From: Parasitella parasitica NRRL 2501
Lineage: Eukaryota; Fungi; Mucoromycota
DNA length: 64,000 nt
Direction of reading: 5' to 3'
NCBI GenBank assembly: GCA_025201805.1
Contig: MU619272.1
Location: 68,515 to 132,514 of the forward strand
Shown: positions 9,716 through 64,000 of the stretch, piece after piece
Numbering within the stretch: position 1 is the stretch's first letter
Layout: each line of letters opens with the position of its first letter
Made by a program: the position numbers and the translations under genes
The notes under the pieces: generated by a model
Database searches by the model: none
What the model was told of the DNA's origin: nothing
What the model saw: the letters and a program-made list of their open reading frames with translations, nothing else

Positions 9716-12700
9716 ATGGCTCATGAAAGCAGACTACGAAATCAAATCGAGCTTTCACCTGCAGAAAATGAGGAGGCCAATTTGATATCTGATAGCCATA
9801 CACATTATGGTGCAACTACGGCATCCACCGCCTCAACCAAGAATTACGAAGAGCCTTGTTCCGAGGACAGCAGTGAAGAGATGATATCAACTGAAAATGT
9901 GGCAAGTAGAAAAAAGAAACGGCTCATAAAGCATCATCATCCCAAAAGACCAAAGCTAGTGTCGACTTTATCTCACATTGTGCGAAGTGCTCGACAATCC
10001 GAGGATGAAGACGATGCTAATAATGTTGTTGAGATGCCTTCGAACGATCTTATTATTCCTGAATTGGATCCAAAGTAAATAACGTTATGCTCTAGCTAAG
10101 AAAAAAAAAAGATACAATCACTTATATGAAACAGTGCAGACGAAGTCCGAGAATACATACCTTCTCCTTTGAAGCCAACAGATGGCTGGACATTGAGGAA
10201 GCACAGTGTGAATCTCAGTAACATAAGAGAAAACTACCGAGATGCACGCATTCGCGATAGGTAAAAGGGCCTAATATTAGTGTGAATGTATCTAAATGTA
10301 TGCATTTAGAAATGGCAATGTACCTTTAACTGGCATCGCAAAGGTCAAAAGCATACTCAAGTACGATGCTTATGTATCTGAAGCCAAAAGAATCCTTTTT
10401 GCCAACCGTAGTATCATTTTATTCGTGAGTTGCGCATGAAATTTCGTAGGCAGCAGCATTCTGAACTTCAGTTTGTATAGGTTTACACTGATTTGATTGT
10501 GGATGTTTTATTGTGCTTGGCTTATCTGGTTGAAATGAAGCAAGAAGCTGATATCAATGCATACCCTCCGTGGATGTATAAATGGAGGTCTTACGATCTT
10601 TGGTTTTGCTGCACAGTGTTAAGTCTATGGAACCTGGGGTCATTCATTATGCGAATATTTTTGACTGGAAGACCGTTCTCGGTCATGTTCAGTTTTAGGT
10701 CACTGATCGAAATTTTTACTACCTACCCATTTATAATATCATTGTTCATTGACAATGGTCAATATTTATACGGTAAGACACGCATTAACCGTATGCTCTT
10801 AAAGATGATACTGATGTCCATTTTGAATAGTGCCCTACTTTCTGCGAAGTTGGGTTTTGCTATTACGGATCAAAAGTATATTAAAGATCAAAACAAATTT
10901 ACTGATGACAGATAAGCCTGTGGATCCGTTGAAGTCGAAGCTGGTTCATTTAGTCGGTACGCTGGTGGCCTTATTATATAACGGCATGTCCGCATTTCAG
11001 TATTGTGAAGTGACATTTGGAGACATAAATTATTCGATATTGGACTCTTTATATGTTGTCATGGTTACGTTGTCCACAGTTGGTTATGGAGGTTTGTATA
11101 TTACCTAATCCTTGACATGCATACTAAAAAAAAAAGCACACATCCAACAGATATTACTCCTCATACACAAGGCAGTAGAATTGTCATGATGCTGCTCATC
11201 GTCATTTCATTGGCCGTGCTGCCAAGTTTACTGGCTGATGCGTTAAATACCCTTCGAAAAAGAAATGGTAATCTCGAAAAGAATTGGCATACAAAAAGTA
11301 CTAATATGTATTGTATCTCAAGATTGGGGAGGCTATGTATCTGAATCACACATGCCGTTCATCCTTTTGGTAGGCGTATTCCACCCAGAGCAAGTGACAG
11401 AGATACTGGATGGATTCTTGAATACGGTAATTGTAAAAAGTATCAAATATTTGAACGACTGGTGTTAAGATATGGCGCATTTCAGGAGAACACAGAACCT
11501 AATTTGAATGTGGTCTTTTTGGATATCAATAGACCCAACGAAGAATTGAAATTTCTGGAAAGAAATTCAATGTGGGGTCATCGTATCCAGTTTATACATG
11601 GATCAGTGTTAGATGAGCAAACGCTCAAGAGAGTCCAAGCAAGGTCAGCAGCAGCAATATTCACGTTGTCAGATCAACACGCAGTAGATCCTTTAAAAGA
11701 GGATGAAAGGAACACAGTTCGTTTATGGTCTTTACACTGTTACACTGTAAGCCATAATGTAAATATTTATACCTACAATCTGTCTCCATCTACAGCCATT
11801 TATCAAAAAATGGCAAAAGAAATTATATGCGTTCGTGAATTCAAGCAGTACTTGTTAGCCATGAATTGTCGATGCCGAGGTGCCTCTACGCTACTAACAA
11901 ACCTATTACATCAAAGAAGACCTATGGACCACTATGACGAATCATGGCAGGCTCAATATGGTAGGCAATAGAAGTTGGGCAACAGGGTAGAATCTAACAG
12001 TTACAAAAAAAATAAAAATAGATGATGGTTCATGTAATGAAATCTACATGGACAGGCCATCTGAATCGCTTGTCAATTTGTCTTTTAAAGAAGCTGCCTG
12101 GGTTGTATATACAGAATGCCAGGTTATTCTGTTTGGAGTCAAAACGCGCTTGAAAAATTGTGAACATCGCGAGATACTACTGAATCCAGACAACAACTAC
12201 ATTATAAAACATGATGATCTTTGTGTTTACCTATGTGAAAGCCCAAGGGAGGTGGGCGATATAAACAGCTTGGTAAGCAAATATTTACAAACACTTGAGC
12301 TAATTCTAACACGATGGTAGAAATACGACTATGTTCGATCAAAAGTGGACGCAATGAAGATACGAAGAAACGCTGAGGCCAACCTCAAAGCGTCAAGAGT
12401 ATCTGAGCCACCTTATTCATCTGCTTCAAGATCGTCTTCGTTTCAAAATGAATTGCTGCACTCGTTACGAAACAGCACAAAGCTACATACCAGTGAACAT
12501 GACACACCAGATTCTGCCCCTGCTTCACCCAATTTTCATTTAGTTCAAAATACGTGTGCAAACAATAGTAATCAAGTCGCTCAGTTGGAACTACCTCAAA
12601 CCATTAACAATGATTTACTGCTCTACCCGCCTCCTTCAAGACCTCCATCCCCAGGCCTTCATCATTCTGTATCCAACGAATCGAATCAATCTCGATCGTC

Positions 12701-14128
12701 CTCTGTATACCAGTCCCCTCGCCACCAGACTTTTGCACTGTGTAAATTACCAACACCTCGCCTTGCTCTATTGACTGGCAACAGAAAGCTGCTCACGCGC
12801 TTAGGCCAGCTACCAGTTATCAATAGTGCAGATGTGGAAATCGAATCATCCCCCGTGTGTTATTTGCTTCCTAAATCTGCTACATTACAAGAATTGACTA
12901 TTACCTCAGCACAAAATATGAATGGGCATATACTGGTTTGTATGCACCACAAGGTTTCCAATATCTTTAAATTCATATACAATCTTCGGTAACGACGTTT
13001 TTAGAAAAAAAAAAAAAAAAAAAAAAAAAACTATTATTCATCAATGGCTGGATGCATGTAGGTCACCACAATTGAAGTCAAACGAGCTAAAGGACATTGT
13101 GTTTCTGTGCACATCTCTACCGAGCGAAAAAACGTTTGAACTGGTCTGTCGCTTTCCCAAAGTTTATTTCATGGTTGTAAGTATATTCTGGCCTATATTC
13201 TCCCAATTTTTTTTTTTTTTTTTTTGAAAAAACCCACACGTTAATACTATTTTAGGGTGATTGCCAACACCCAGAAGATTTAATCAAGGCAGGCGTCAAA
13301 AGAGCAAAGCAGGTGGTGGTTATGAGGTATGGCATTAAACATTCGAGCAAAAAATTATGGTATTAAAACGGGTAATAGCGAACGAGAGTGTCTTGATCAA
13401 TACCAAAGAAGCTCAGACAGCCCAGCCATGTAAGGACACTTTAATTAAATACTAAGAGTCAGATACCAACATCAATTGCGTAGTATGACGAGCCATTTAT
13501 TGGATCTCTTACTCCAAGATAAACCGCATGACTCCTCTCGCATCGTAAATTTAGGTGAGACATCATATATGAAACCAAACAGCTGCAGAATACTTAAAAA
13601 TGTTTCTTTTGAAAAGTCGAGAAATCAAACATTAGATTCATGCATTTACTGCAAGGCAAAGATGTTGCAGAAGAAGTAGACGTTTTTTACACGCCCGCCT
13701 ACGCTGCTGGTAACGTTGTAGTGGACAGCCTATTGAGCAATGTCTTGTTGAGCCAAACGTACTACAAATCAGACATTGTCTCCGTCATAAAAGCCCTTTG
13801 TGGCATGCCTGGCCCTCTGTACGATAAAGACACTGCCCATATTTTGGAATGTGGCACTAAAATACGGCACAACCTATTTCAGAATTCTCGCCATTTATCG
13901 CTCTCTGTTATGCCTCCCTGTTTTATAGATAAGAGCTTTGCGTTCTTGTTTGAAACGCTTGTCATGGACCACGAAGTGCTGCCCTTGGGTATTTTGCGTG
14001 CACCAGATGAAAATATGGGAAACGAGCTATCGTTTGTGTACACAAATCCTGTTTCCTCTCTGATTATGAAAAGATCTGACAAAATTTATTTGCTGGCTTC
14101 CCCTGGGTGGAGCTTTTTTTCCAAGTAG
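9716..14128 (+). CDS. Slo/BK-type potassium channel (TM segments, pore, RCK domains), multi-exon
   Basis: Pore TLSTVGYG|DITP across an intron. RCK-like motifs FIHGSVLDEQTLKRV, LAMNCRCRGASTLLTNL, GHILVC and YTPAYAAG; C-terminal VYTNP. Confidence 0.85.
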
Positions 14129-18615: not shown

Positions 18616-20763
18616 ATGTCAAGCGCAAACATTTCCTTACTATGTGAAGCAAGTAAGTCTACAAGCAAACAATCGAATTTACTTCTTATAATTTTTTCCA
18701 AAGGTGAAGATGAGCTGTTTACATTTTATGAAAACTACTTCAAAATCACGCACGTCAAATCATGGAAAGTATTGGACTTGTTTAAAGCATTGCTGGCTGA
18801 ATACAAGCCAATTTCATACGATTGCGTGTCAATTTTTGTTCATACTTTCAAACGATTTGGACGAAATTATGCTTCCAATGATGTCAAGATACAACATACC
18901 ATGAATAAATTGTCAGATAAGTGCGACAGTGTTATTAACTCTGACTTGGCAAGAACGCTCGTGGTGAAAGAACATGTAGAGGTAAATATTTTATTTCACA
19001 TATATTTTACATATATTCATCTAATATTCTCTATCATGAACATTTTGGACACAGCAATCGAGACTTTTATATTGTATTCATGTTGTTGATGATGTATTGA
19101 AGGACAAGACCAATGTGATAAATCAAAATGTAGTACATCCAACTACTTCTCCATCATCCAACCGAACATCAAGTTTAAAAGAAGTGACCCCACAATCATC
19201 TTCATCGTCAAGCACATCAGCAGTGGACCCACAATCATCTATATCGTCAAGTGCAGCAGCAGCAACGACATCCACATCATCAAATAAACCATCAATGCTG
19301 AAGAGAGTCGACAATGATGATCCATCACCTTCATCTCAAAACAAAAGAAGAAGTCGTTTAAGTGTAAAATATGTCAAAGGGTTAAACTTGGATGAAAAGT
19401 TACAATGCTTAGCTGATTATTAGTAAATTTAATTACTAGAATCCCTGTATTCAGCTGCTGTTATATATTAACACATTTCTCCTCTAGTGGTAATGATAAT
19501 ATGTTGGACCTCGTATTCCCTGGTGTTATTCCTGTTCGTTTCGCAAGTATCATGAAGCGAATTTCCGATGATTTACAAATGCCACTATCACTTAAGTACA
19601 CTGAAAACGAAAGGTCAATTCTCATCAAGGTCATCAAAGCAGCATCATTGCATGATATAGAAGTAATTGTGAAGGATATCCCGCTGGTTCCTCGTGTTGG
19701 TCTTCAATCTTATCTGTACATTGCTTTATCAAAACTGTAGGTTAACTTGCTTATTTTCTGCTTGATGAACGTTAATCGTAATAATTGTTTATTATCAGGC
19801 TATTACTTTATCAACGCGATCAATTACAAGACACTACTCATAAGGAAGGGTGGTACCAAGGGCATTTGTATGCTGATGTTTTTGATGCTGTTTTCCTATT
19901 TGATCCTTGCTATGTTACAAAGAGGTAACATATATCAAGACACCCTAATATGGAAGGGGAGGAGCTAACATGCTGTCCGATTCATTTTTGTAGGACTGAA
20001 TGCCATGCGACGACTATCAAATACTTGAAAAAGATGAAACAGATTGCTAGTGATGAAAAGGACGTCAAAGTAGATCTTATCTTATTTAATACTCAATTAG
20101 GTGATATCTTTTCATGTGAGGACAAACCAGCTGAAGCAAAAGAAGCAGATGTTGAAGCAGATATCAAGAAAGCCAAGGACCTCCGCCAGAAGCGTCTCTT
20201 GTATATCAAGTCCATTCTGCCCCATTCATCACTGATCAATTCCGTTGAAGTTATCAGCTCGCAGTTTTGGGGTTTATCTTTAACAATTTATGGGTCAAGA
20301 ATGACCGAGAAAGGAACCATCATTCATTATCAAAAGGGTGTAGCAAGTCTTTCCCCAATATTCAGCATGCCAGAAGTAGCTCACTTTTTACTCACAGTCA
20401 TGTCTTTACAAGTAAGTGCAGATGCCACTTTCATTATTTTCATTCATAATTGCCATTAATACGTTTTTATAGCGAGCAATTGTATTGGATTTGAAGAAAC
20501 TTACAGCAATATACCAAGTTGGCCTTGAAGACTCGATCAGCTTCTTATCATCTAATAATGATGGCATGTTTTATCGTGATGACTCCCCTATTTCAGATAA
20601 TACTTCAGACACCTCGATCAGTAGCGATATGATGGGAATGGAAAAATTACGTAGAATATTGAAGCAAACTACTGACAAGGTTAATGCAATTGGTCTTGAT
20701 GACGACTTGTTAAGCTGTGAAGACTGGGAAGATCTCCTAGTGCTTGATGAAAATGACAGTTGA
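18616..20763 (+). CDS. Putative PD-(D/E)xK restriction-endonuclease-fold protein (CR-REase-like), 7 exons, ~588 aa
   Basis: Exons 18616-18652, 18704-18981, 19055-19422, 19488-19736, 19799-19924, 19994-20411 and 20473-20763 splice (all GT..AG) into an open 1767-nt frame. Motifs HKEGWY..RTECHA..KVDLIL..SCEDK. Confidence 0.7.
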
Positions 20764-24930: not shown

Positions 24931-26883
24931 ATGCCTTTCATTCCTGCCACTCGAAAAAGAACGCTTGCAAAACCACAGGAAGACCAACTGCAATGGAATC
25001 TAACAAAAGGGCATTACAAAAGACAGTGCCGCGAAATACCGTACCCTAGGAAACATTCCAAAGCTGCACTAACCACTGAATTTATTGCCAACAAGTTTGT
25101 ACAGTTTTTATTCAATACACGAGAGGTATATATATACCCATAGTACGAACACTTTCACCAAATTGCTAAATGCTGTAGTTGTATAGGAAAACGTAAAGTT
25201 AGATCAGTTGGCTGTAGACATCGCATCTCTCTATCAAAGCGTTGCTTTTTCATCAGTACAATTCAATAAGATTATCAGCGAACAAGCAATAAGCACTGTC
25301 CGTTTGCTTGAATATTATTACAAGCTTTTTACTCGTCTCAAAGTATTGGCTTTAACTTTGTCATCCATATTACAGCATGTCAAAAACCTGGATGAAGCAA
25401 TAGTCGAACTAATCAGTCATGATGAGTATATCGCTGCTGGTAAGTATGCAAGCGCTCCAAAACAATCAAATCTCTAACATCAAAGCATATAGCTTATATA
25501 CCACACCTGACAGACGAAAAACTGAACGAGTTCTTCGAGATAGATGGCAAACAATTAACAAACTGGTCATCATTTATGAAAATTAGCAATGCTCGACGAT
25601 TACACATCATTCTGGAGCATCACGCTTCAACATCGTCTCCTGATCAGCTGAAAAATATCATGATTCGGTTAATGAGCTTTCACAAAGTCCAGCCTAAAAC
25701 TAGCGATGAAAGCCTCAGTAAATGCTATTATCGACAGTTACGATCTGTCAAGGAATTCTTGTTTGGCAGCAAACACACACAAACGAAACAATACGACTCT
25801 TTTCTTGCAAAGAAACCCGTTTTTCTGTTGATTTCGAGCTGGTTTTTTGAATTCAACTCGAAATCTAATATCATCTTTACAGATTTTATATCTCAAATCG
25901 TCTCTGTGGGGTCTAGTCTTGAAAATGTGAGTATATTTGGATTTTCGTACATACGTTTAGGGCAAGCTGTTAAGTCATTATTTATAGGGATCTGAGGTGA
26001 TGGACATTTCCGTCTTACTGTATTCATATTTTACAGCTTGTAAAGACATAAATACCACAGAGGAAGGTGTTTTACATATTTTTGACATTATTGGAGCTAT
26101 CAACAATGCTGTTAAGCAATCGCTTGAAAGAGATGATCAGAATGACCTCTGCACTATATTAGCAATAGCCCAAATTGCATTAGAACATATGCATACATCT
26201 GTGGGATACACTTATGCTAGTTGGTTTGAGGTATTTATTTACTGTGATTCATTACATCACACATCTAAATCATTTCTTGGTAGTCCTTATTTATAAAACG
26301 CAGCTCAACTATATTGGATAAAAGGATGAGCACAGTGTTTATCAAGACGCTACAACAAATGATATTATATGAAATACCCAGTGTCCTCCAAATACATGGA
26401 AGAGCATTGTTAGACTGTACGACTATTCCGAATTCACAGCTTTATGTATCTAGTGCTCGTAAACGATTGCTAGAGTTAGGAGTAAGAAAGGTGGCAATAC
26501 ATGCAACTGAATTGTTAATTAATATTCATGTCGTATGGAAACTCTAGGTAGACCGCCACTTAAAGAGCTATCCAATATCTTTGAAGACTCCATTACGATT
26601 AGACATTATCACGGATGACAACTCCGGCGAGGGAGACGAAGTAGGAGAAATCATACAGCAGTTTATGCAAAAGGACAACACTGTACCGGTATCTCTGCTT
26701 CATGCTCATGTATTCAAGAAGCAGTGGTTTATGTCCACATTCTTACCGACACTATTGGATTGGAAAGGGCGAAATGTAGAAGCTCGAGATAAGCTAATCA
26801 TAGCTCTCAGAAAGATGAATAAGGTTCCGGATAACTTATACAAATCATTTGTACAGCAGCAAAAGCAGAAGAAAATCGCATGA
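24931..26883 (+). CDS. FANCA: Fanconi anemia group A-like protein (N-terminal FANCA domain only), multi-exon
   Basis: YASWFE...VFIKTLQQMILYEIPSVLQIH...YVSSARKRLLELGV and VPVSLLHAHVFKKQWFMSTFLPTLL...IIALRKMNKVPDNLY align by eye with recalled human FANCA segments ([60 protein letters not shown]). Confidence 0.75.
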
Positions 26884-40692: not shown

Positions 40693-41145
40693 CAAGATCA
40701 ATGGCCTTCTTGTTCAAATCAATGTATTACCATGGATATCCACAAGCAAACCACATCTATTTGAGTTTAATACGCTCTCTACTGAGCATTGGATGCGATG
40801 GTGGTATTCCCTCCAAACCTTTTCGCTTGCTTCTGTTTCTGTGCCATCTTGTAATGATCTATTTACATCGGCCTTTCGGCGAGAAATGTCATTTGAAATG
40901 ACATGAGGAGCACTTTTATAATGATCGCTGATGATTTCACCTATTCCTAATGCAATTTCCTTGGTGTGCATGTCAGCTAAAAGTAAACTGCCATCTCGGG
41001 TTCTATCAGGTATCGCCGCTGGTTTGGATAGCCCTCCATGAGGAGCAGTGATGATAAGAGGAAGATTCCCTGATTTTGAGTACACTCCGTGTCTTGTATA
41101 CGCCTTTTCCTGGAATCTTTTGATGTCTTTATTTGCGTCTAGCAT
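40208..41145 (-). CDS. N-formylglutamate amidohydrolase-like Zn-dependent hydrolase, 2 exons
   Basis: Motifs PLIITAPHGG, SRRKADVNR, WREYHHRI, LLVDIHG|HTH..ELGY and IQVEIP. Intron at 40730-40648. Confidence 0.75.
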
Positions 41146-41678
41146 TGTAAAAAGAGAGAAGACAAAAGGTAGCGCCAATTGATAATTGGTTATGTTATAT
41201 GAGAATGGTACGACAAGTATGATCGGTATAATAATAGTAAAAGCGTCCATCATGATGATTTTTGGCATGTGGCATGAAAAAGTAGGATTTGCAATTAGCT
41301 AATATATGCGAAACATGGCCAGTAACATGTCTTTACATTTAACGGTGCAAGGCAATCCAAGCATGCACAACTAGTCCTAATTTTTAAATAATCGTTGAAT
41401 TGAGCTTTACGTAGCAAAACAGAATCTGGATAATCAGATCTGGGAAAAGTGGCGGATAGAGGTTTTAGCACCTAATAGCTTCCAAAAAGTGGTACTAATT
41501 TTTTTAGCTTGCAATGATACAACAACCCTTGGAATGGCAAAATTTGGCAGCACAGGAGCTCCGATGTAGAACAGCTTTATGTCATGGCTTCAATTGGCAT
41601 TTTAAGCATGTATAAATACACTGTTCGAGTATTCAAACCGCTGTTAAAATTCTTTGTTCCTTTTCTTCTTTTTGGAAA

Positions 41679-45166: not shown

Positions 45167-47391
45167 ATGACTCGTCCATTGTCAATTGTGCTGTCAGTCT
45201 TACTTGTGGCATCTACTACTTTAGTGCAAGCAATAGGTGGTAGAAGCCGCATGATGTTCTTGAGAGATGTGGACGAGAACTTTGATCAATGCAGAGGCTC
45301 TGGCTGGGAAAATGACATGGAAAAAAAAAAAAAAAAAAAAGGCCTTGCTTGAATCGAGCAAAAGAGCTGCAATTCACTGTATCATGCTTGCTTAGTTGAC
45401 TAGATTTACTGGTATCTTTTTTGGCGATTTTTACACTGGCGGCTCTCAAGACATTTTGGGTTCTCTTGCTGTGGAGGGCAACATGCATGCCCCTAACTAC
45501 ATTGTTAATGCGAACCATGTAGAGCTCTTACCAAACAGGATTACGCACATGTGCTAATAGTCTGGCAAATAGGGTGCCGACTGTAGTAGTCCTGGCTCTT
45601 TGAATTCATACGGTCTAGTCGTTGGTGGCACCATTGATACTTTTAATACGCATGTACACGGGAACGCCTACATTGCTGGCGGTGGCACCACTGAAGAGGT
45701 TTTGGAACTGGAAAAAGGCTGTTTTGTCACTGACCAAGAAGGAACAGGTATATTTGACTTTGTCCTAGTGAAAGATTTACTTCAATCATCTTCTGAGGAT
45801 TTCGCCAGCTATCCTGCCACCTCGATTCTGGAACCAGACGGATCGCTCACTGAGCTTCGAAATAGCGAGCTGGGTTATTACGAGATTTTAACATTCAATA
45901 CCTGTGGAGAAGCTGCCTGCAGCGCTGATCCAGACACTGAATCTGATCCTAATGCTATTTTCTTGAATATTGGTAACTGGAACGGCGTGCAAGGCCCCAA
46001 AGTTAATCCTAACAAAACCTACGTGTTTAATGTATGTAGATGCAAAAAAAAAAAAAAAAAACTTCTATACCAAACCCGCTTGCTGATCTACCAGTGTAAA
46101 AATCACAGATTCCAGTTAAAAACGGTGCTACTTTCACAATGAGCTCAAATCACCCTTCTAATGGCTTCAACCCCTGTAACGTAATCTATAACGTTTACCC
46201 TGTTGATGATAATGGTGCATTCTTGGCTGATGGCGAATTCACTTTTGTCCGGAAAACTTCTAATCAACTAGGCGGTTTTGTGTTGGCACCCAGAGGTACA
46301 TACATGGTATCACTTTTGCATATTATTCTTTTATTGGGCTAAACTTTACAACAAACATAGGACATATCGTGGATGGTAGCACTGGTAATTTTGCAGGCAC
46401 CATTGTCGGTATGGATTACACTTGGGAAAACATGAATGCCGGCGTCGAAATCCATGATTATGCATCGGCAGGTGGCAATTGTGATCAATACTTGGGCTGT
46501 ATTCCTAACCATGTAACCACCACACCATCGATGACTGTAACTCCCACTGAGACATCAACAAAAAGCAAATCCAGAACTCGCACTTGGCCGACTACTATAT
46601 CCGTAAACACCAGTGCTCTTACCAGGTTTCTCTTTTGGAATGCAATTGCAAAGCCCACTATTGAAGTTGACTTTACTGTTAAAGAAACGACCACAGAGAC
46701 AACAACTAGAACTACCAGTCTGCCATTATCCACAACTGCCATTGACACCTCGTACGAACAAATAACGTCTGTTCCAATTACATTGGAAACGACTTCCACT
46801 ATCGTCATAACAATCGTTACCACGGATTCAGAGGGAGACCCCACAGTCATCACAACAACCTCAATTAATATCGACGACATCACCAGCTTTACAGAGGAAA
46901 CTACAACCATTACCGAGCTGACTTCCACCATCTACTCTGAGACTACAGTTACTGAAGAAATAACAGAGGTTGTTACAACGATTGAAACTATGGAAACATT
47001 TCCAGAAACGACCTGCATAGAAAATAGCCCCAACGTGGTCACCGTTGATTCTACAGTTACAGAAACCATTGCCGATGTTACAGACAGAGCCACAGCCACG
47101 GTGCCAAGTGATATTAAAACTGTCACTGTCACCACAGATGTTGTCAAGACAACCGAGGCCGACGCTGTTTTTTCTGTCACTGACTACGTGACGACCAAGG
47201 AAAAGTACCAGATCGACCGTGTAACTGGAACAGTGACAGAATGTGATGCTAACTTGAACACTTGTGCTACCATCACGTTTGATGACGGGAAGCATTCCAA
47301 GACGTACGGTGGTGAACATGACGGACATCACCACGGGTTTGGCAAAAAATGCGACGAAGAGGATGATGATGATAGTAACGATAGATACTAG
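45167..47391 (+). CDS. Secreted choice-of-anchor-A/ice-binding-like domain protein with Thr-rich stalk and His/Asp-rich tail (paralog 1)
   Basis: Signal peptide, FTGIFFGDF..DILGSLAVEGN, YGLVVGG..VHGNAY, GFVLAPRG and a Thr/Val/Glu-rich region. The first intron donor reads GA before a poly-A run. Confidence 0.65.
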
Positions 47392-47597: not shown

Positions 47598-49434
47598 ATG
47601 GGTCGTATTTTATCCTCAATTCTGACCGTATTTTTCATATCGTCGAGCTTTGTCCAAGCTCAGCGAGGCCTTTTTCCTCGTGCCGTATCATCGAGTATAG
47701 AAATATGTTTTGGAAACGATTGGCAATTTGATGTAGTAAGTTGAGAGAGTGCTTTCACACTAGGCAATATTCCAATTCTAAGCAAATGCATAGACAACCA
47801 GATTTACTGGAATCTTTTTTGGTGATTTTTACACTGGCGATGGCACTGACATCCTTGGTGGTCTTGCTGTAGAAGGAAACTTTCATGCTCCAGATTATGT
47901 TGTCAATGCTAATCATGTAAGTTTTTTTTTGTACCATATCGCTGATGACATAATGTCAACACATGTATGTAGGGCGCAAATTGTTCAGCAGTCGACTCTT
48001 TAAACTCTTATGGCCTCGTTGTTGGGGGTATCACTACCACGACCAATACCCAAGTACATGGTTCTGCTTATCTCAGTATGGGTGGCACTGTCAATGAAGT
48101 GAAAGAACTGGAGGGAGGATGCATTGTCACAGACGAATTAGGCACTGGTATCTTTGACTTTAAACAGGTCAAAGAAATGGCAATTGTATCCAATGCGGAT
48201 TTTGCACATTTTACGCCCACTGCAATTTTAAACCCTGATGGAACCATCACTTATACGCGCGGCGATGAGTTGACTCTATATGAAATTTTCGGGTTTCATT
48301 CGTGTGCTGGTCAAATCTGCAGCCAGTATACTTCGTTGGAGTCTGATCCTAGCGCTATTTTCTTTGGTGAAGGCAACTGGAATGGTGTACAAGGCTCAAC
48401 CATCGATCCACTGAAAACTTATGTAATGAATGTAGGTCGCTTTCGCCAAAAACAGTATACATCTCGATGTTAAACGTCGCTTTAGATTCCTGTATTAGAT
48501 GGCGATACTATTGTGATCGACAGCAATAATCCATCTCTCGGATTCAATCCCTGTAAACTGATTTACAACTTTTATCCCGTGGATGCTTTCGGCAACTACT
48601 TGCCAGAAGGAGAATTCACGCTTATTCGAAGAACTGCTAATCAGTTTGGTGGATTTACACTGGCCCCTAGAGGTAAATATCAGCGCTCCTAAACTACGAA
48701 TGCCGGGACTAAATTCAACTTGTACCGTAGGCCATATCGTTGATGGTAGTGTCGGCAACTTTGCTGGCAATATCGTTGGTCTCGACTATACCTGGGAAAA
48801 CTTGAATGCAGGTGTTGAGATTCACGATTACCATGCTGCAGGCGGTGATTGCGATTACTATGAGGGTTGTATCCCAGTGCACGTTGATGAGCCTTCAATC
48901 AGCATAACAATCCCCACCTATACCTTTAGTAGCACTTCATATTCGCCCTCTGATTCCGTTATCACCTGGAGCCGTCCTTCGATTGACATCAGTACCTATG
49001 ATTCTTGCACTGCAGACATAACAGACACCGAAACAGTGACAACCACTGACACAGATACAGTCACTGTAACAATCGCCTCCAGTATAGATACCATCACTCA
49101 AACGGTTGGTACTGTAACCGAGACTGAATCTATCACTGAAACAGATGTGGTCACGAAGACCCTAATCGTTATCAAGCCAACCACTATCATACGTACCTAT
49201 ACTTCATGCGGTCAAGCAACTGAGACTGTTACCGAAACTGTCGTTGAACAAGTAACTACTGATTGCGATTACCATACACATCATCACGATGACAGCCATA
49301 AAGGACATCATCATGGGCCCGATGAAGAGTGCGATGAAGATGATGACCAAGATGATAATTACAAGCAGGCCAAGAAAGATGGCAAAGACGATGAAGACGA
49401 GGAGGATGAGGAGGATGAGAAAGATTATAAATAA
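47598..49434 (+). CDS. Secreted choice-of-anchor-A-like protein (tandem paralog 2)
   Basis: Signal peptide MGRILSSILTVFF. Same motifs and four intron positions shared with paralog 1. Tail HTHHHDDSHKGHHHG followed by an acidic run. Confidence 0.7.
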
Positions 49435-56502: not shown

Positions 56503-56952
56503 TTAACGTTCTTCAAAATCCCAAAAGATGATCATATCATGGGAATTCAATTCGAATTCAAATTCTACGTCCTCCAAGAACTGAATTTCATGAACTAACA
56601 AAGCAGGTATAACGCAATCCTCATTTTCACGCAGCAAGTATGCTTGACTTGTTTGCAAATCATCGATTTGAATTGAGCCAGAAAGAATTGTTATACGAGA
56701 CATTGTTGGGAAATGATGGGGAGGCTGAATTGGAACAAACTCAGTATGACAGACAAAAGCAAACAAACAGATGATCAAGCTTACCAATGAAGTTCCAGCT
56801 CTAAATTTCATTGTGGTCTTAAGAAAAGGTGTCTTGATGATATTTTTCCATTCACCACCCAAACAAGCAGGAAAATGAGGGATAGGAGTATATTGATCTG
56901 TGGTGGGAGTAGCCTTGCTGACAGAAGTTGAGGCAGATGTTGAAGAAATCAT
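56503..56952 (-). CDS. Small cupin-fold protein, 2 exons
   Basis: After removing a GTAAGC..CAG intron: FRAGTSLPPHHFP..ITILSGSIQI...CVIPALLVHEI. Confidence 0.6.
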   Translation of the reverse strand: MISSTSASTSVSKATPTTDQYTPIPHFPACLGGEWKNIIKTPFLKTTMKFRAGTSLVSLIICLFAFVCHTEFVPIQPPHHFPTMSRITILSGSIQIDDLQTSQAYLLRENEDCVIPALLVHEIQFLEDVEFEFELNSHDMIIFWDFEER

Positions 56953-57947
56953 GTCTTTATTGTTATTTTTGTGTAGAGAAGAAGAACAAACAAGATGCAA
57001 TGAAGTCTTATTTATATGATGAAATCCTTGATTCAAAGCATTAAATGTGACCTTCCATCGTTTTTTTTTTTTTTTTTTCTCGAGTTACATGTGCGATGTA
57101 CTAATTTAGATCCTATGTTCTCGACCTCAACCCCCCCATTACCACCTACTTTTTGTTTTTCCATGTATACCTTAAAAAGAGCAAAAACTTGTTTAGTCGT
57201 TATGCATTTGGAATCAAAAATATATGTAATTGGTACATATTGTCAAATATTGCAGCTATACTCGAATTGGATTGAATGAAAAAAGGAGGCATGGAAGTTA
57301 TATCATTGCAAATGTGTAGTGATGGGAGAATCGCTAAAAGACAGATAAAAAAACTTTTTCTTTTTTTTTTTTTTGGTATTATTATCAAAGCATCTCCGAT
57401 TTCGAGTTTTGCATCAAAAGCATTTCATTTACTATAAAACACAAAACGTTTGTTGTCATGGTAACAAGACATATGCTGCTGTTTTGTCATATGTCAACTT
57501 TCATTGTTGAGGCATATGAGTTAAGAGTGTATATTCTATACACTTGATAAAACATGAGACTTGTTGGACACTGTATTTGATATGTTCCAGGAACGATTGG
57601 CATTTCTCATGGATACAATAGCACCTTCCAATCTGTAACATCCTCCCAATAAATAAATACAGTATTTTGTGGGGTAGACTCTGTTTGGAACCAACTCGGA
57701 GTTGGATCAAAATAGAAGCATTTACTGACTCATCCAAAATCTAATCTTTATTTGAAAACTGCCTAAACCAAAACTAAATCCCCTTAAAATGAGGTATTTT
57801 ATACAATATTTTATATATAACGTTAAACAACATGATGGCATTATATGATATTTTATTGTCATTTGATCCAGCTTGATACATTTTTTTACAGTGATATATT
57901 TATATTGTGGGAAAAGTAGCTAAAAAAGTAAATTTACCGAACCAATT

Positions 57948-60900
57948 TTATACAAGCAATTTCTGGAAGCTATTCAAGATGCGTTCAGTTGATAATTTTG
58001 ATCCCTTACTTGACACCAAGTAAGCCAAGTCAGCAATAATAGCGGGCGTCATGTTGATAACTTCGTTGCCGTCAACGGCCATCTTATAGGTGGTGTCTTT
58101 AGCTCGGTGTACGATCTCTGTTTCCTCTGCTATCTTGGTCGCTCTAGTAACAACAGATTGAGGAATGCCTGCCATTGTCGCGACATTCATACCAAATGAT
58201 TTTTCACAAATGCCAGTAGTCAACTTGTATAAAAAGGTTACATTTTGCTCATCTTCGTCCATGATGTATCCCCTGATTGTATTGAGAAAGCGATGAATAG
58301 ATTATCTTGTATTACCACAGCCAACTTACATGTGCATATTATTAATTTCAGGACTTCGCTCAAACTCTTTGCAGAGTGTTTGATAATGAGTTGCAAACAT
58401 TCCCAAACAGCCGATATGGGTGGATAGATAATGCAATACGGAATAAGCAATAGCATAGCCATCAAATGTAGATGTTCCTCTGCCAAGTTCGTCCAAGATG
58501 ACCATGGAACGAGGAGTAGCTTCCTTTAAGATCTTGGAAGTCTCTGCTAATTCAACCATAAACGTCGATTGCCCTCCCATGATGTTGTCATTTGCTCCGA
58601 TACGGGTATAGATACGATCACAAGGCGTAAGTCGGCAAGATCTCGCAGGTACATAGCCACCCAATTGCGCCATGATGATAGCTACGCACGTTTGCCTCAA
58701 TAGAGTTGACTTGCCACCCATGTTGGGACCAGTTAAGACAATAACGCTTGCTTGCTGTCCACCTAAGCCTACATCATTAGGAATAAAGTCGGCTGCGACA
58801 CTAATACAGGTGAGGAGCACGATTAGATAAATACTATAAATTGCTTATATGCATATATTACCCAGGTATAACACATGGATGTCGTAATTCTTCAAATTCA
58901 ACAATACTCTTTTCTTGATCTAACAAGACAGGTCTGCAAGCAGGTTCTATAAATGGTACTGGAATGTGAGTGTACTGCTATCTTTATAAGGACATATACT
59001 TACCTCCCAAGTTCATTGAGCCCTTGGCCAAGCCCATCAGTGCATCTAATTCAGCAATGCTCTGCACGGCAGATAACCACATGGTATATGATTGATCAAA
59101 AGTTGCGTATACTTCCAGCGAGAATTTCTTAACAAAGGCATTCTTGGTCTCCAACAGTTCTTTATACTCAACCACCAAATTCTTGACAGTGCTATCCCAA
59201 TATCGGTTCACTTTCTATCATTTGGCATAAGTAAAACTATGACACGCGCACTCGACTCTCCTGTATCTTACGCTTGTGTTTGAGAGTGTGATCCAATCAC
59301 GGGGTACTTTTACGGCTTTAGGCACTTCAAGTTGATACAGATCTTTACCAAGATCACGGTATACAACAGTGGAACATTTGAGTTCCCTTTTTACTGTCTG
59401 TAAATGTGACAAAAACTGTGCTTCTACGTCTTTGATCTGCTCATTGATGCCGTCCCATTCTTGATTCATGCCGTCTTTTGGAATCATTGTCTTGATTTTT
59501 TGATCTAGTAATATTGTTAATAGTTGGGATCATCTTGCTCTTCTCTACTTACAATCCACGTCCACATCTGCAGTAATAAAGGAGCTGTTTATATGCTCCA
59601 GTTTACTATCAATGTGAGGGAACTGGTCGATCAAGTGGCTCAACAGACTTGACTTGAATTCGCCTCGACTTTGTGTCAAGGTATGAACAATGTCACGTGT
59701 CGTCTGGAATCCTTCCAGTGAAATCAAGAATTCCTTGACCTTGATCCTTCCTGAATGGATACGAGAAATCAATCTTTCTAAATCAGGCATGCCATACATT
59801 TGTTTTGAGATGGCTTCATGCAAGTCAACAAGGCGCATCAAGTCCTCGATTGCATCTAGTCTGTTGTTTATGTCTTCAATGCGACGCAGAGGATGGCACA
59901 GCCATTGTTTGAATAATCGTTTGCCAAAGGGTGTAATGCTGTTTGCCAGCAGCTTGAACACAGTACCTTCAGTACTGCCATCATATGAATTTTGAAAGAT
60001 CTCAAGATTAGCCAGCGTTTGGCCGTCGAGTACCAACGATGTAGCATTGCGGATAGGATCATACATCAGCACATGCTTGGCTGATAGAAGCTCTTGATCC
60101 AACTTGAGCTGTGAAAAAAAGAAAAAAGTGAGCATACATAATATATACAGGGCATGAAAGACGTACTTACCGAGCGAAGATACCATATTAAACCACCAAA
60201 CGCAGACATTAGTAAAGGATCTTTGCGAGCCTCAGCAATGGCTTGATCTAATGCTTCATTTGTAGGCTGACCCTCAGCGCCAAAATACTCGTGAATATTG
60301 ATTTCATCCTCTGTAATACGAGCATCCCAAAACTCAGTATCAGGCTGCAGCATATTCCAGAGTGGCGCATTCAGGATGTTCTTGAGCAAGCGAGTTGTCG
60401 TCTTTGACAGTCTACCCTTCTCTGTAACAAGCTCGCGGGGCTTGATTTGCATGATCAGTGTTTCGAATTTGGTTCGATGCACGTCGTCTTGAAAATGGAC
60501 AAGGTTGAACTCGGCAGTAGCTGTATCGACAAAGCAAATACCAAAGCTTGGAGGTAGGGTTTCATCACCACAGTGCTCCTTGATGGACATGCAGTAAGTT
60601 CCCAGTTCATTTGTCAAGAGCCCAGAATCAACCAAGGTGCCGGCTGTCAGCACAGATGTCAATTCACGACGAATCACTTTGTCTGCCTTGCTAGACTTGG
60701 CATTGCCCTTTTCGCGCATGGATTTTCCAATGGCTGTCTCCATTTGATCCACCTTGGCCACTTTATGGCCTTTTGCAATGAATTGTGCTGTCCAGTAGTC
60801 AAACGACATTTCAGGAACACCCACCATTCTCATATTGACACGGTCGGTCATCTTCAAGTCAAAGTCTTTGTGGCCAATATCTGCATCCTTTTCGTATAGT

Positions 60901-62017
60901 TCTGTTTAGGCAAATGTTAGTCAATGGATACTTTTCCAACATGCTACTCTTACCATAGAATTTGCCCTTTTTAAAGAATACAATCTAATTTATACTTAGT
61001 CGTGAGTCGTTTGTTCTTGTACGCTGCCTAGTCAAGTCGTTTCTTACCGTATCCCAGTGCTTATGCTTAACATCCCAGTATTGCTTTTCGAAAGGAGTAA
61101 ACTTTTGCCAGGCAGATGGAGGTATATACAAAGTACGAGGATTATAATCTGGAGATCCAATATGATTTCCTTCCAAATCCTTTTGATTTTGAAGCCAATG
61201 GTATCGCTCATCGTTCTTTTCTTTGAACTTTTGATTGCGTTCTTGCTGTTTTTCAGACTTGGATGTCATATTCATTCTAGCAAAAGCACTGACGGAGGGC
61301 TTTTCATACATGGTCGAACCGACTGAAATTTTTCCAAATCTCTCGGCTAATGGGGTAACAGGTGCCTTCCTTGGAGCAGAGTTGTTACTGGATAAATCAT
61401 CATCATCGTCTTCCATCAAGTCGTCCTCATCACCAAATATGGCCTCCAAATCTTGATCTTTCAAGGTATCGTCTTTGGATGGTACAAATTCCGCTTCACT
61501 GTCATCATCTTCTATCTTGCGTACAAGGCGTCGCTTTTTTTCTGTTACATTGAATGAATAAGTCATGTTGCGCACAAATTACATCCACTTACGAGCAAAG
61601 GGATTAACTACTTTTTTAGTTAATGGTTTATCATCTTCGCTATCAGAATCAGATAGTTTGTAACTGATTCTTTTACGATTACGTCCCTGTACTTTGTTAG
61701 CGTACCATGCTTTTTCTAGTCTACCATCAATTTACCGATTTCGAGAATAAAGGTGTTTCATCATCATCCTCTTCTTCTTCTTGATTATTAATATTTTGAT
61801 CTATATCCATTCTGTCGTCTTTATGAGCGATGCTGGATTTTTTTGCAACCGGTGCCTGCTGATGTTGTTGTTTGACAGGTTTAGAAGCAGCCTCTTTCAC
61901 TGCTAATTGCTCGGTTGTTACCTCTTTCTGGATGATGCTTTCAGAATGCTTCTTGTTGAAAAATGAGAGCAATGAGCTCTGTTGCTGAGGCTTCTTTGGT
62001 GAAGGATTTGGTGCCAT
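57948..62017 (-). CDS. MSH6: DNA mismatch repair protein Msh6
   Basis: PIP box [45 protein letters not shown] and DELGRGTST. Confidence 0.96.
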
Positions 62018-62486
62018 AATGGTTTTCAATCTGATAGAAAGATGGATGAGATTGTGCGCGTGTTTATTACTCTCGGCGCGCTTCTTTTTGTCGACTTGTC
62101 AATGTGTCACGGAACAAAAGAGTCACTGTGGGACCTGGGATGCATTGATAGTAAACGACTTGATGCATCATGTAAATGTAGCGCGATCCAGTTGTATCAT
62201 GGAGCTTCTGCTTGGGATTTTGATTTACAGTACAACATCTAATGATTTGGCACGCAGTTTCTACAGCTCAGTAACTAATGTATTGTGTACAAGTGTAAGT
62301 CGGTGGATGATGGGTTTGTTGGTTGTCGAATAGTTTACATATCTGGATTTCAGGAACAGTTGCCATGGAAACAAGATCAAAATGCTGCAACGAATATTTG
62401 CCCTTCAACGGCATTGAGGCAATTTATTATATTACAGTTGACGAAACTAGGTTGGGCTAATGAAAATAAATTTGGTCATTTCCAAA

Positions 62487-62600
62487 TTAAGTTGGGTCAC
62501 GAATACGAAAATGGGACAACAAGATGAAAATGGGACGTTAATATGAAAGTGGGACATCAACATGAAAATGGAACACATAAGAGAATACGGGACACGAACA
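62487..62600. repeat. Six degenerate 19-bp tandem units (consensus GAAAATGGGACA..AA.AT)
   Basis: GGGAC-like cores at 62494, 62513, 62532, 62551, 62570 and 62589. Confidence 0.85.
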
Positions 62601-62887
62601 CAACTGTGGAACTATACCGAATAGATTCAAAGGGGTTTTTTTTTGGTTCAATTCAAGGGCGCAGCCCTGAAAACAGCAACCCTTTATAGAACTTGTATCA
62701 TATTCTAGTACTTTATGATCGAAGTGCCAAAGTCAAAATTTATTTGTGTACAATTTTTACTTGGCTAACAAGGCCTTCAAGTAATAGCTGAAACAATTCT
62801 GCTTTGGTCTAAAAATGAATTGAATATGTTATCTTGTTTTTCTATTATTGTTATACCCAATGCCAAAATGGGTGCTCTTACCAAAAA

Positions 62888-63092
62888 NNNNNNNNNNNNN
62901 NNNNNNNNNNNNNNNNNNNNNNNNNNNNNNNNNNNNNNNNNNNNNNNNNNNNNNNNNNNNNNNNNNNNNNNNNNNNNNNNNNNNNNNNNNNNNNNNNNNN
63001 NNNNNNNNNNNNNNNNNNNNNNNNNNNNNNNNNNNNNNNNNNNNNNNNNNNNNNNNNNNNNNNNNNNNNNNNNNNNNNNNNNNNNNNNNNNN
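62888..63092. other. Assembly gap (other gaps at 32491-32520 and 44169-44243)
   Basis: Runs of N. Confidence 1.
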
Positions 63093-63362
63093 ATCTGAAT
63101 GAGGATATTCTCGATGAAAACTAGCTAGGTATTTATAATTTATTAAAAACAGAGTCTGGTCTTGATATACAATATAACAACATTGGCAGCCGGGCGATAT
63201 CAGTAATTGGATTAGAGAATATATCAACAGGTGGGATCCATGTGTGTGCATTCTCTTTCAGAGTTGTCTCATGTATATATCTCTCGATCGGGTTGACAAG
63301 ATTTGATCTAGTTGACAGACAAATGTTGCCTTGAACTCTTTTTACTTCTTTTCAATTAACCA

Positions 63363-64000
63363 ATGCCACGCATACCTATTTACCCTGAAGTGGAGAAGTT
63401 CATCATCCTCAAGAAACGTACAAAGCTAGAGGAGGTCGAATCTGATAACAAGAAGGAAAACTCTACCACTCAGACCCCAAAGAGAACATGTAAGTAAAAA
63501 GAAACACTTTATGTAATTCCAAGGTTTTACAAGCTAATGCATATAAAGCTACCAAGAGGAAGGACTCTCCTGCTTTAATAACAGCAAAAAGGAATGCAAA
63601 GAAAAGTCGCCAAGCTAGTACTTCAGCAGCATCATCCTCTAAGAATAATTGTAGCTCTTGTCAAGAGGAAGGGCATAGCTCTGCAAGAAGTTCCCAATGC
63701 AAAAACTATAATCCAAAGCTACCGGAACGTCTACAAATCAGACTTGGATCCCATCAAAGATACACTCTCTCTGTTCCATTTGAAACTCTTTGTAATGATA
63801 CTCCAAACAAAGCCAATGCTTTAAAAAAAGTCAAGGACATATCAAGCTTTGTCCGTGAAGTCTTGTTCAAAGCTCAACTATTTGTAAATCATTTTATTCT
63901 GCTACATCCAACCAAGCTGACAAATGACTTCTTTGATCAAAATTTTTGGTATACTATTTCAAGAGTTATTAGGGGCAGCTCAGATAAAGTAAAGCCAACT
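63363..64000 (+). CDS. Probable Fanzor1 (TnpB-related RNA-guided nuclease), 5' part; runs off the window
   Basis: Exon 63363-63489, GTAAGT..AAAG intron, then an open exon from 63549 to the window end. CCHC-like knuckle CSSCQEEGHSSARSSQC, then VKDISSFVREVLFKAQLFVNHFIL...FFDQNFWYTISRVI. Confidence 0.7.

Follow-up and report, generated by a model that had tools for sequence, protein, structure and literature searches.

We conclude with good confidence that the window analyzed here, a stretch of 64,000 nucleotides of Parasitella parasitica NRRL 2501 (contig MU619272.1), ends inside a multi-copy, TA-flanked transposon, likely of the Tc1/mariner type, that carries a spliced Fanzor1 gene and was likely transferred recently between Parasitella parasitica and Mucor species. 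That the gene at the window edge is a Fanzor1 we regard as almost certain. Fanzors are eukaryotic kin of the RNA-guided CRISPR nucleases, and the protein encoded here is predicted to cleave DNA. It is a eukaryotic gene in a eukaryotic transposon: its introns are removed, and the boundary of the repeat lies beside a fungal MSH6 gene. An initial annotation of the DNA had already proposed a Fanzor1 at this position; added here are the transposon end 930 bp upstream of the start codon, the multi-copy state of the element and the near-identity of the gene across species (Table 1).

Table 1. Features of the Fanzor1 element in the window.
Feature	Positions	Strand	Details
TA dinucleotide at insertion point	62433..62434	+	likely left copy of TA target-site duplication
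Transposon left end, CAGT start, Tc1/mariner-like	62435..62887	+	depth step, contig starts
Sub-terminal array, 4.6 degenerate 19-bp repeats	62507..62594	+	TRF period 19, 74% matches, score 83
Assembly gap within element	62888..63092	.	205 N; L001 bridges with 142 nt
5' untranslated region intron	63129..63189	+	61 nt, GT..AG; X15 joint on L001, transferred to window
Fanzor1 coding exon 1	63363..63489	+	127 nt, phase 1, aa 1-42, ATG 63363
Coding intron 1	63490..63548	+	59 nt, GT..AG, GCTAAT branch-like site
Fanzor1 coding exon 2, 5' part	63549..64000	+	stop-free up to window end
CxxCxxxGHx7C zinc-knuckle-like motif	63650..63700	+	aa 77-93, N-terminal to Fz1 core

In this copy the window covers only amino acids 1-193 of the Fanzor1. 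Spliced, they are encoded by 193 codons with no stop, whereas the unspliced sequence runs into a stop after 44 codons; at the local stop frequency, an open frame of 150 codons has a chance probability of about 4e-4. The junction of intron 1 is the exact break point seen in protein homologues, and three other AG dinucleotides close to the acceptor would likewise hold the frame. The arrangement first described for this locus, an ATG exon, a 59-nt intron and an open exon, thus proves exact, with both the breaks in the homologues and the splice joints from the probable RNA runs in agreement. The product of exon 1 comprises a predicted N-terminal helix and the beginning of a basic segment, and shares 42 of 42 residues with one Mucor flavus model. 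Exon 2, which in the sister contig L001 is 261 nt longer than its window part, encodes a basic linker, the CCHC knuckle, the first WED strand and the first REC helices. The knuckle, RYTLSVP (encoded at 63758-63778) and the helical motifs quoted earlier for this locus were all found there.

Searched alone, the window fragment yielded nothing significant against Pfam (best match zf-CCHC, E 0.45) and no matches among PDB sequences, and its fold model (pLDDT 91, pTM 0.57, with pLDDT 94-97 over the knuckle) matched only generic helices (best Z 4.8), a result that is uninformative either way. The Fanzor1 identity holds through relatives, namely the motifs of L001, the match of a family profile to SpuFz1 of Spizellomyces punctatus and the predicted fold of the family. 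L001 is a metagenome contig of 3,214 nt that is identical to window positions 63093-64000 at 890 of 908 nucleotides (98%). It was one of three loci matched in the metagenome search; the other two, L002 and L003, were weak matches of 37 residues and were set aside. Its gene has six exons, five GT..AG introns and at least 803 codons without a stop, and the contig edge falls about 18 codons before the expected stop. The initial annotation had pointed to RuvC motifs beyond the window edge as the feature to look for, and in L001 such motifs are present. The catalytic set of L001 consists of D515 (in DPG), E732, CxxC-CxxC and D777 (in NRD), with E732 six residues ahead of the CxxC and the fingerprint positions C739 and C767 in the C4 zinc finger. 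The RuvC-I DPG is likewise present in full-length relatives, and for the Parasitella copy its position lies beyond the window. Fanzor fingerprints, among them Ealt, are used here as defined in the accessible part of Yoon 2023 (PMC10711439); the pattern of Ealt, C4 finger and RuvC-III D occurs in eight of the nine sequences tested, the sole miss being a mis-spliced model.

The wider family gives the same picture. A representative protein search produced 140 matches, and the 11 longer homologues of exon 2, all hypothetical proteins from Mucor and Rhizopus, form one family. A 773-aa M. saturninus model matches SpuFz1 at E 4e-7, and a family profile built from 19 sequences and searched against the PDB matches SpuFz1 at E 4.8e-17. 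The C, C, H and C of the knuckle are almost invariant across 64 aligned relatives, and the motif is present in 73 of the 140 matches, many of those matches being fragments; the relatives named here are mostly broken or fragmentary gene models. No further loci of the family were found in the viral contigs or prokaryotic genomes searched.

Several other properties of the relatives deserve mention in their own right. A tail peptide resembling ATSNV follows the last RuvC motif in 10 of 11 complete relatives, some of which are only about 50% identical overall; it may reflect an omegaRNA that overlaps the last codons. Past the bridge-helix region, at positions 2546-2770 of L001, lies a long basic insertion that intron 4 interrupts and that is predicted to be partly disordered; it might be akin in position to the FRI insertion of PpFz1. 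In addition, the M. atramentarius and M. circinelloides models P0003, P0005 and P0308 combine the N-terminus of the family with the C-terminal motifs of another Fanzor1 type, which would result from nested insertion, from recombination or from a gene model joined in error.

The fold was assessed with an AlphaFold model of P0298 (821 aa; pLDDT 79, pTM 0.73), which is 79% identical to the L001 product. It matches the SpuFz, PpFz and GtFz structures at E 1e-15 to 9e-20, and Fz2 at E 1e-3. In structural alignment it scores Z 23.7 with SpuFz (rmsd 4.2, 542 aligned), 21.7 with PpFz and 20.8 with GtFz, and the next family follows at 13.5. On this model, the family is predicted to have the Fz1 fold, with its REC/WED N-terminal lobe, distinct from those of Fz2 and TnpB. 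Because the Fz1 structures align to P0298 from about residue 111, the Fz1 core would open with RYTLSVP as its first strand, preceded by an N-terminal extension made up of the basic segment and the knuckle, in which the knuckle is likely an accessory nucleic-acid-binding module. It could be argued from the weak zf-CCHC likeness, and from a fragment without a fold match of its own, that the knuckle is that of a gag-like protein from a retroelement, or of a DDE transposase, and not of a Fanzor. However, all 11 of the longer homologues are members of a single family whose sequence runs on into RuvC/TNB, and the L001 motifs and P0298 fold settle the assignment as Fanzor, so we consider such an origin extremely improbable.

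Transcription and splicing were followed in X15 and X16, whose RNA status is probable only and whose contigs were mapped on L001, 98% identical and maybe not the window copy. Joints in X15 have introns 1 (59 nt), 2, 4 and 5 spliced, and intron 3 is represented by matching loose ends; introns 1 and 4 are also spliced out in X16 contigs, and no intron is skipped in the DNA run X1. Because X15 joints or loose ends cover all five coding introns, at least one data set appears to contain transcripts of the family with every intron removed. The X16 contigs carry one frameshift and two internal deletions. Contig depth in X15 is greater over the 3' half, which was given no weight, contigs being unable to rank parts of a gene, and the raw RNA run X21 gave no reads in a sample of 6% of the run, which is too little to count. 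Upstream of the ATG, the window, L001 and an X15 RNA contig have a 17-nt stretch (window 63260-63280) that the majority contigs of the X1 and X3 DNA lack, so the element occurs in at least two sub-types.

The left end of the transposon was placed by means of contigs from other loci. In four runs these begin to match at 62432-62436, and their loose ends ahead of 62430-62433 are unrelated to one another, which puts the element boundary TA/CAGT at 62435. Marks of the Tc1/mariner type are thus seen on the left side, the TA at 62433-62434 and the CAGT from 62435. At this boundary the depth rises from 110.6 in the flank to about 2,100-2,600 in the element in X1, and from 32.1 to about 630-680 in X3; the element-to-flank ratio of 19-24 in these two runs is a rough figure, as depth does not equal copy number. 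In X1 and X3 alike, a single contig reproduces window positions 60000-62458 with no differences and runs into the terminus. The two runs have different organism codes and identical flanks and were not taken as two species. X6 and X8 also contain the element, with the MSH6 flank nearly uncovered at 80% likeness, an observation that was not used as evidence. The right end of the element falls past the window and past L001, and no second TA, omegaRNA or partner transposase was found. Within the 64-kb window there is no second copy of the terminus, and an isolated 18-nt viral match to the terminus (L004) was treated as chance. No transposase-sized ORF lies in the 930 bp between the terminus and the Fanzor ATG and, as none would fit there, the element is likely non-autonomous. 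From its sequence, the 19-bp array near the terminus is a possible set of transposase-binding sites. Separately, the summed contig depth at the terminus (62412-62545) far exceeds that of the element body (13,600 versus 2,600 in X1), and single-copy contigs have only the first 20-90 bases in common with the terminus; the excess depth and the short shared stretch together suggest that related ends occur on many further elements or on copies that have no gene.

The relationship of the Fanzor1 to its counterparts in other species differs from that of the neighboring host gene. Compared with M. circinelloides models, the window protein has identities of 94.8% and 94.1%; the figure for M. atramentarius is 93.1%, and those for four M. 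flavus models are 93-100% (42-127 residues each). For whole MSH6, the identity of Parasitella is 84% with M. circinelloides and 71% with M. flavus, and the MSH6 exon adjoining the element agrees with Parasitella parasitica at 244 of 245 residues (99.6%). In a Fanzor tree of 26 rows, from which more distant homologues were excluded and in which two chimeric models were trimmed to their N-terminal parts, the window and L001 fall into a single clade (100/99, paths of 0.06-0.09) together with M. circinelloides, M. atramentarius and four copies from M. flavus; the sister clade holds M. saturninus, M. mucedo and a further five copies from M. flavus. In the MSH6 tree, M. flavus lies far from Parasitella, with a path of about 0.6 (summed by hand, under a different model from that of the Fanzor tree). 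An AU test rejects the M. flavus, M. saturninus and M. mucedo copies as one group, named post hoc (p 0.00016); M. saturninus and M. mucedo we take to be kin to M. flavus. Since the transposon gene is closer across species than the MSH6 repair gene, a slender standard of comparison in being a single host gene, and one that leaves the direction unreadable, these sequence comparisons make recent horizontal transfer between Parasitella parasitica and Mucor species highly probable.

The same near-identity would be expected from vertical inheritance of a domesticated gene under strong selection, or from contamination of an assembly. The host comparison comprises MSH6 only; strong purifying selection on fungal Tc1/mariner elements is reported in the available portion of a preprint (10.1101/2025.06.16.659975), and Parasitella lives on Mucor hosts, which makes mixed cultures plausible. 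However, the introns and untranslated DNA of the window and L001 are about 98% alike as well, synonymous divergence is 3 in 126 sites, and the gene is multi-copy with a transposon end as its boundary. Likewise, at 16 listed sites nothing but scattered changes separates L001 from the Parasitella-like X1, the M. flavus copies are spread over several contigs of 0.5-3.3 Mb, and contigs of both X1 and X3 join a Parasitella-type flank to the terminus. We therefore consider selection or contamination an improbable explanation, and prefer recent transfer. As to its route, Parasitella delivers nuclei into its hosts by fusing with them (PMC4241652), and it grows on M. circinelloides according to a figure legend in the accessible text of PMC3734967, which makes it a plausible vector. 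The available portion of the preprint also reports horizontal Tc1/mariner transfer as common across Mucoromycotina (10.1101/2025.06.16.659975). The fuller proposition, that a knuckle-bearing Fanzor1 element, expressed and still mobile, has Parasitella parasitica, itself a fusion parasite, as its vector among Mucorales, is one we advance tentatively and regard as unlikely.

Whether this particular copy is complete and intact is a separate matter, for which we see an even chance. Its 193 codons are open and its splice sites intact. Beyond the window edge, an X1 contig that represents collapsed multiple copies extends for a further 477 nt. X1 contigs cover L001 in 30 of 30 bins; the indels listed all fall outside the coding exons, and there is no difference over positions 2885-2960, which include the E codon. 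Among 29 listed codon changes (40 of the 107 substitutions being listed) there are no stops, and X1 may differ at the two aspartate codons of the catalytic set. It is only slightly less probable than even that the family is Fanzor1 and this locus is truncated, internally deleted or mis-joined, with no active nuclease and with the transcripts arising from other copies. Relatives are frequently decayed, and at 63903 the window alone encodes Leu, against Gln in the three majority contigs, in X8 and in L001. Furthermore, bases private to the window number 10 in 453 to the left of the assembly gap and 3 in 908 to the right (Fisher p 0.002), and since they are denser on the left, the scaffold may be a composite, with a different copy on each side of the gap. 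On the other hand, only four bases and a 17-nt non-coding indel distinguish the sequence on the right side from the majority contig of X1.

Elsewhere in the window, the gene neighboring the element is MSH6, whose start codon (62017, minus strand) lies about 415 bp from the element, which is upstream of it and points away (62017-62435); an influence of the element on the promoter of this mismatch-repair gene is conceivable. Exons of a BK/Slowpoke-type calcium-activated potassium channel gene occupy 11345-14125. An ORF at 45573-46139 encodes a putative ice-binding-like adhesive domain (PF20597, E 1e-8), and another at 40717-41298 resembles N-formylglutamate amidohydrolase (PF05013, E 2e-7), a mostly bacterial family. 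Six long ORFs (19-843, 19929-20456, 25444-25992, 46264-47388, 48562-49431 and 56506-57084) gave no Pfam match at E 0.01.

One can imagine how such an element would maintain itself. By analogy with SpuFz1 and TnpB, a transposase supplied in trans would excise the element and reinsert it at a TA. The Fanzor, of about 820 aa, would enter the nucleus through its basic segments, load an omegaRNA from the 3' end of the element and, if it behaves as its analogues do, cut the vacated donor site, using a TAM ending in TA and a guide derived from the flank. Repair from a copy still holding the element would then restore the site, and copy number would rise. The analogy with SpuFz1 follows the available text of Saito 2023 (PMC10432273), where a role of Fanzors in transposon maintenance is only proposed. 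Introns and nuclear-localization signals are described as general Fanzor traits in the accessible part of Jiang 2023 (PMC10530073), which makes it plausible, by analogy, that the basic segments are such signals.

The family is young, multi-copy, spliced and found in some culturable Mucorales, and could serve to test the part in transposon maintenance that has been proposed for Fanzors. It offers sites with and without the element, a TAM that can be predicted and a path by which transfer may occur, and adds an Fz1 clade whose zinc knuckle precedes the part that aligns to solved Fz1 structures. If Parasitella is indeed the vector of a still mobile element, this would be a culturable natural system in which to watch the selfish role of a Fanzor, that is, empty-site cutting, copy gain and genome invasion. 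The surprise is limited in that Mucorales Fanzor1s and, in the portion of the preprint available, common Tc1/mariner transfer in Mucoromycotina (10.1101/2025.06.16.659975) have already been reported.

Comparison with known Fanzor1 systems helps to place the family. With SpuFz1, encoded by the Spu-1 element of Spizellomyces punctatus (PDB 8GKH, 9CEU-9CEZ), the Parasitella/Mucor family has the DPx/Ealt/NRD catalytic layout in common and, by prediction over residues 111-804 of P0298, the Fz1 fold. As described in the part of the literature accessible to us, Spu-1 is TA-flanked, has terminal repeats and no transposase of its own, and can be likened to the Parasitella element, whose left end is seen. 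The two proteins are only about 17% identical, however, and differ in length (about 630 aa in SpuFz1, about 820 aa here). Relative to SpuFz1, the Parasitella/Mucor family adds about 110 N-terminal residues with the CCHC knuckle, a basic insertion of about 45 residues after the bridge-helix region, and five coding introns.

PpFz1, also from Parasitella parasitica (ID58, 849 aa; PDB 9CF0, 9CF1), has the host species and, by prediction, the fold in common with the window family (Z 21.7). That the window gene is the published PpFz1, or ID59, was considered and rejected: the N-termini differ, the structural identity to PpFz1 is 14-17%, and the family profile misses PpFz1. Given the differing N-termini, the window family is separate from PpFz1 and from the second tested Parasitella Fz1 (the N-terminus of PpFz1 being taken from the available parts of Xu 2024, PMC11423790, and Saito 2023, PMC10432273).

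No published account of the window family or of its transfer was found in the literature covered; the element may be listed in supplementary files outside it, namely those of Jiang 2023, of Yoon 2023 and of the preprint on transfer. In the zinc-knuckle literature searched, no mention of Fanzor was found. Saito 2023, so far as its tables and supplements were available, contains pieces of the family. Among the FZ1 rows of Supplementary Table 1, the M. circinelloides entries EPB91797.1 and EPB92523.1 are, by eye, C-terminal fragments of the window family, and CEG80323.1 (R. microsporus), KAG2202060.1 (M. saturninus; our P0338) and CEP20192.1 (P. parasitica) are knuckle-bearing relatives. These entries are tree tips only, the nearest ones being partial models; a Parasitella copy of the window family is absent from the five Parasitella rows of that table, and the tested orthologues of supplementary file 5 include no Mucor or Rhizopus protein.

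Other Mucorales Fanzor1s are carried by ROr-1, ROr-2, ROr-3 and MCi-1, described in the accessible text of Bao and Jurka 2013 (PMC3627910) as Mariner-type, TA-duplicating elements. According to that text, ROr-1 and ROr-3 begin with CAGT, as the window element does, and have TA duplications, and ROr-3 is without a transposase. In contrast, the ROr and MCi elements described there have two to three exons and a terminal sequence unlike that of the window element, and none of four window-family motifs occurs in the 12 of 14 supplements searched. The gene at the window edge thus belongs to an uncharacterized Fanzor1 family, in an order whose Fanzor1s have been known since 2013 and with fragments of the family already present in a published table.
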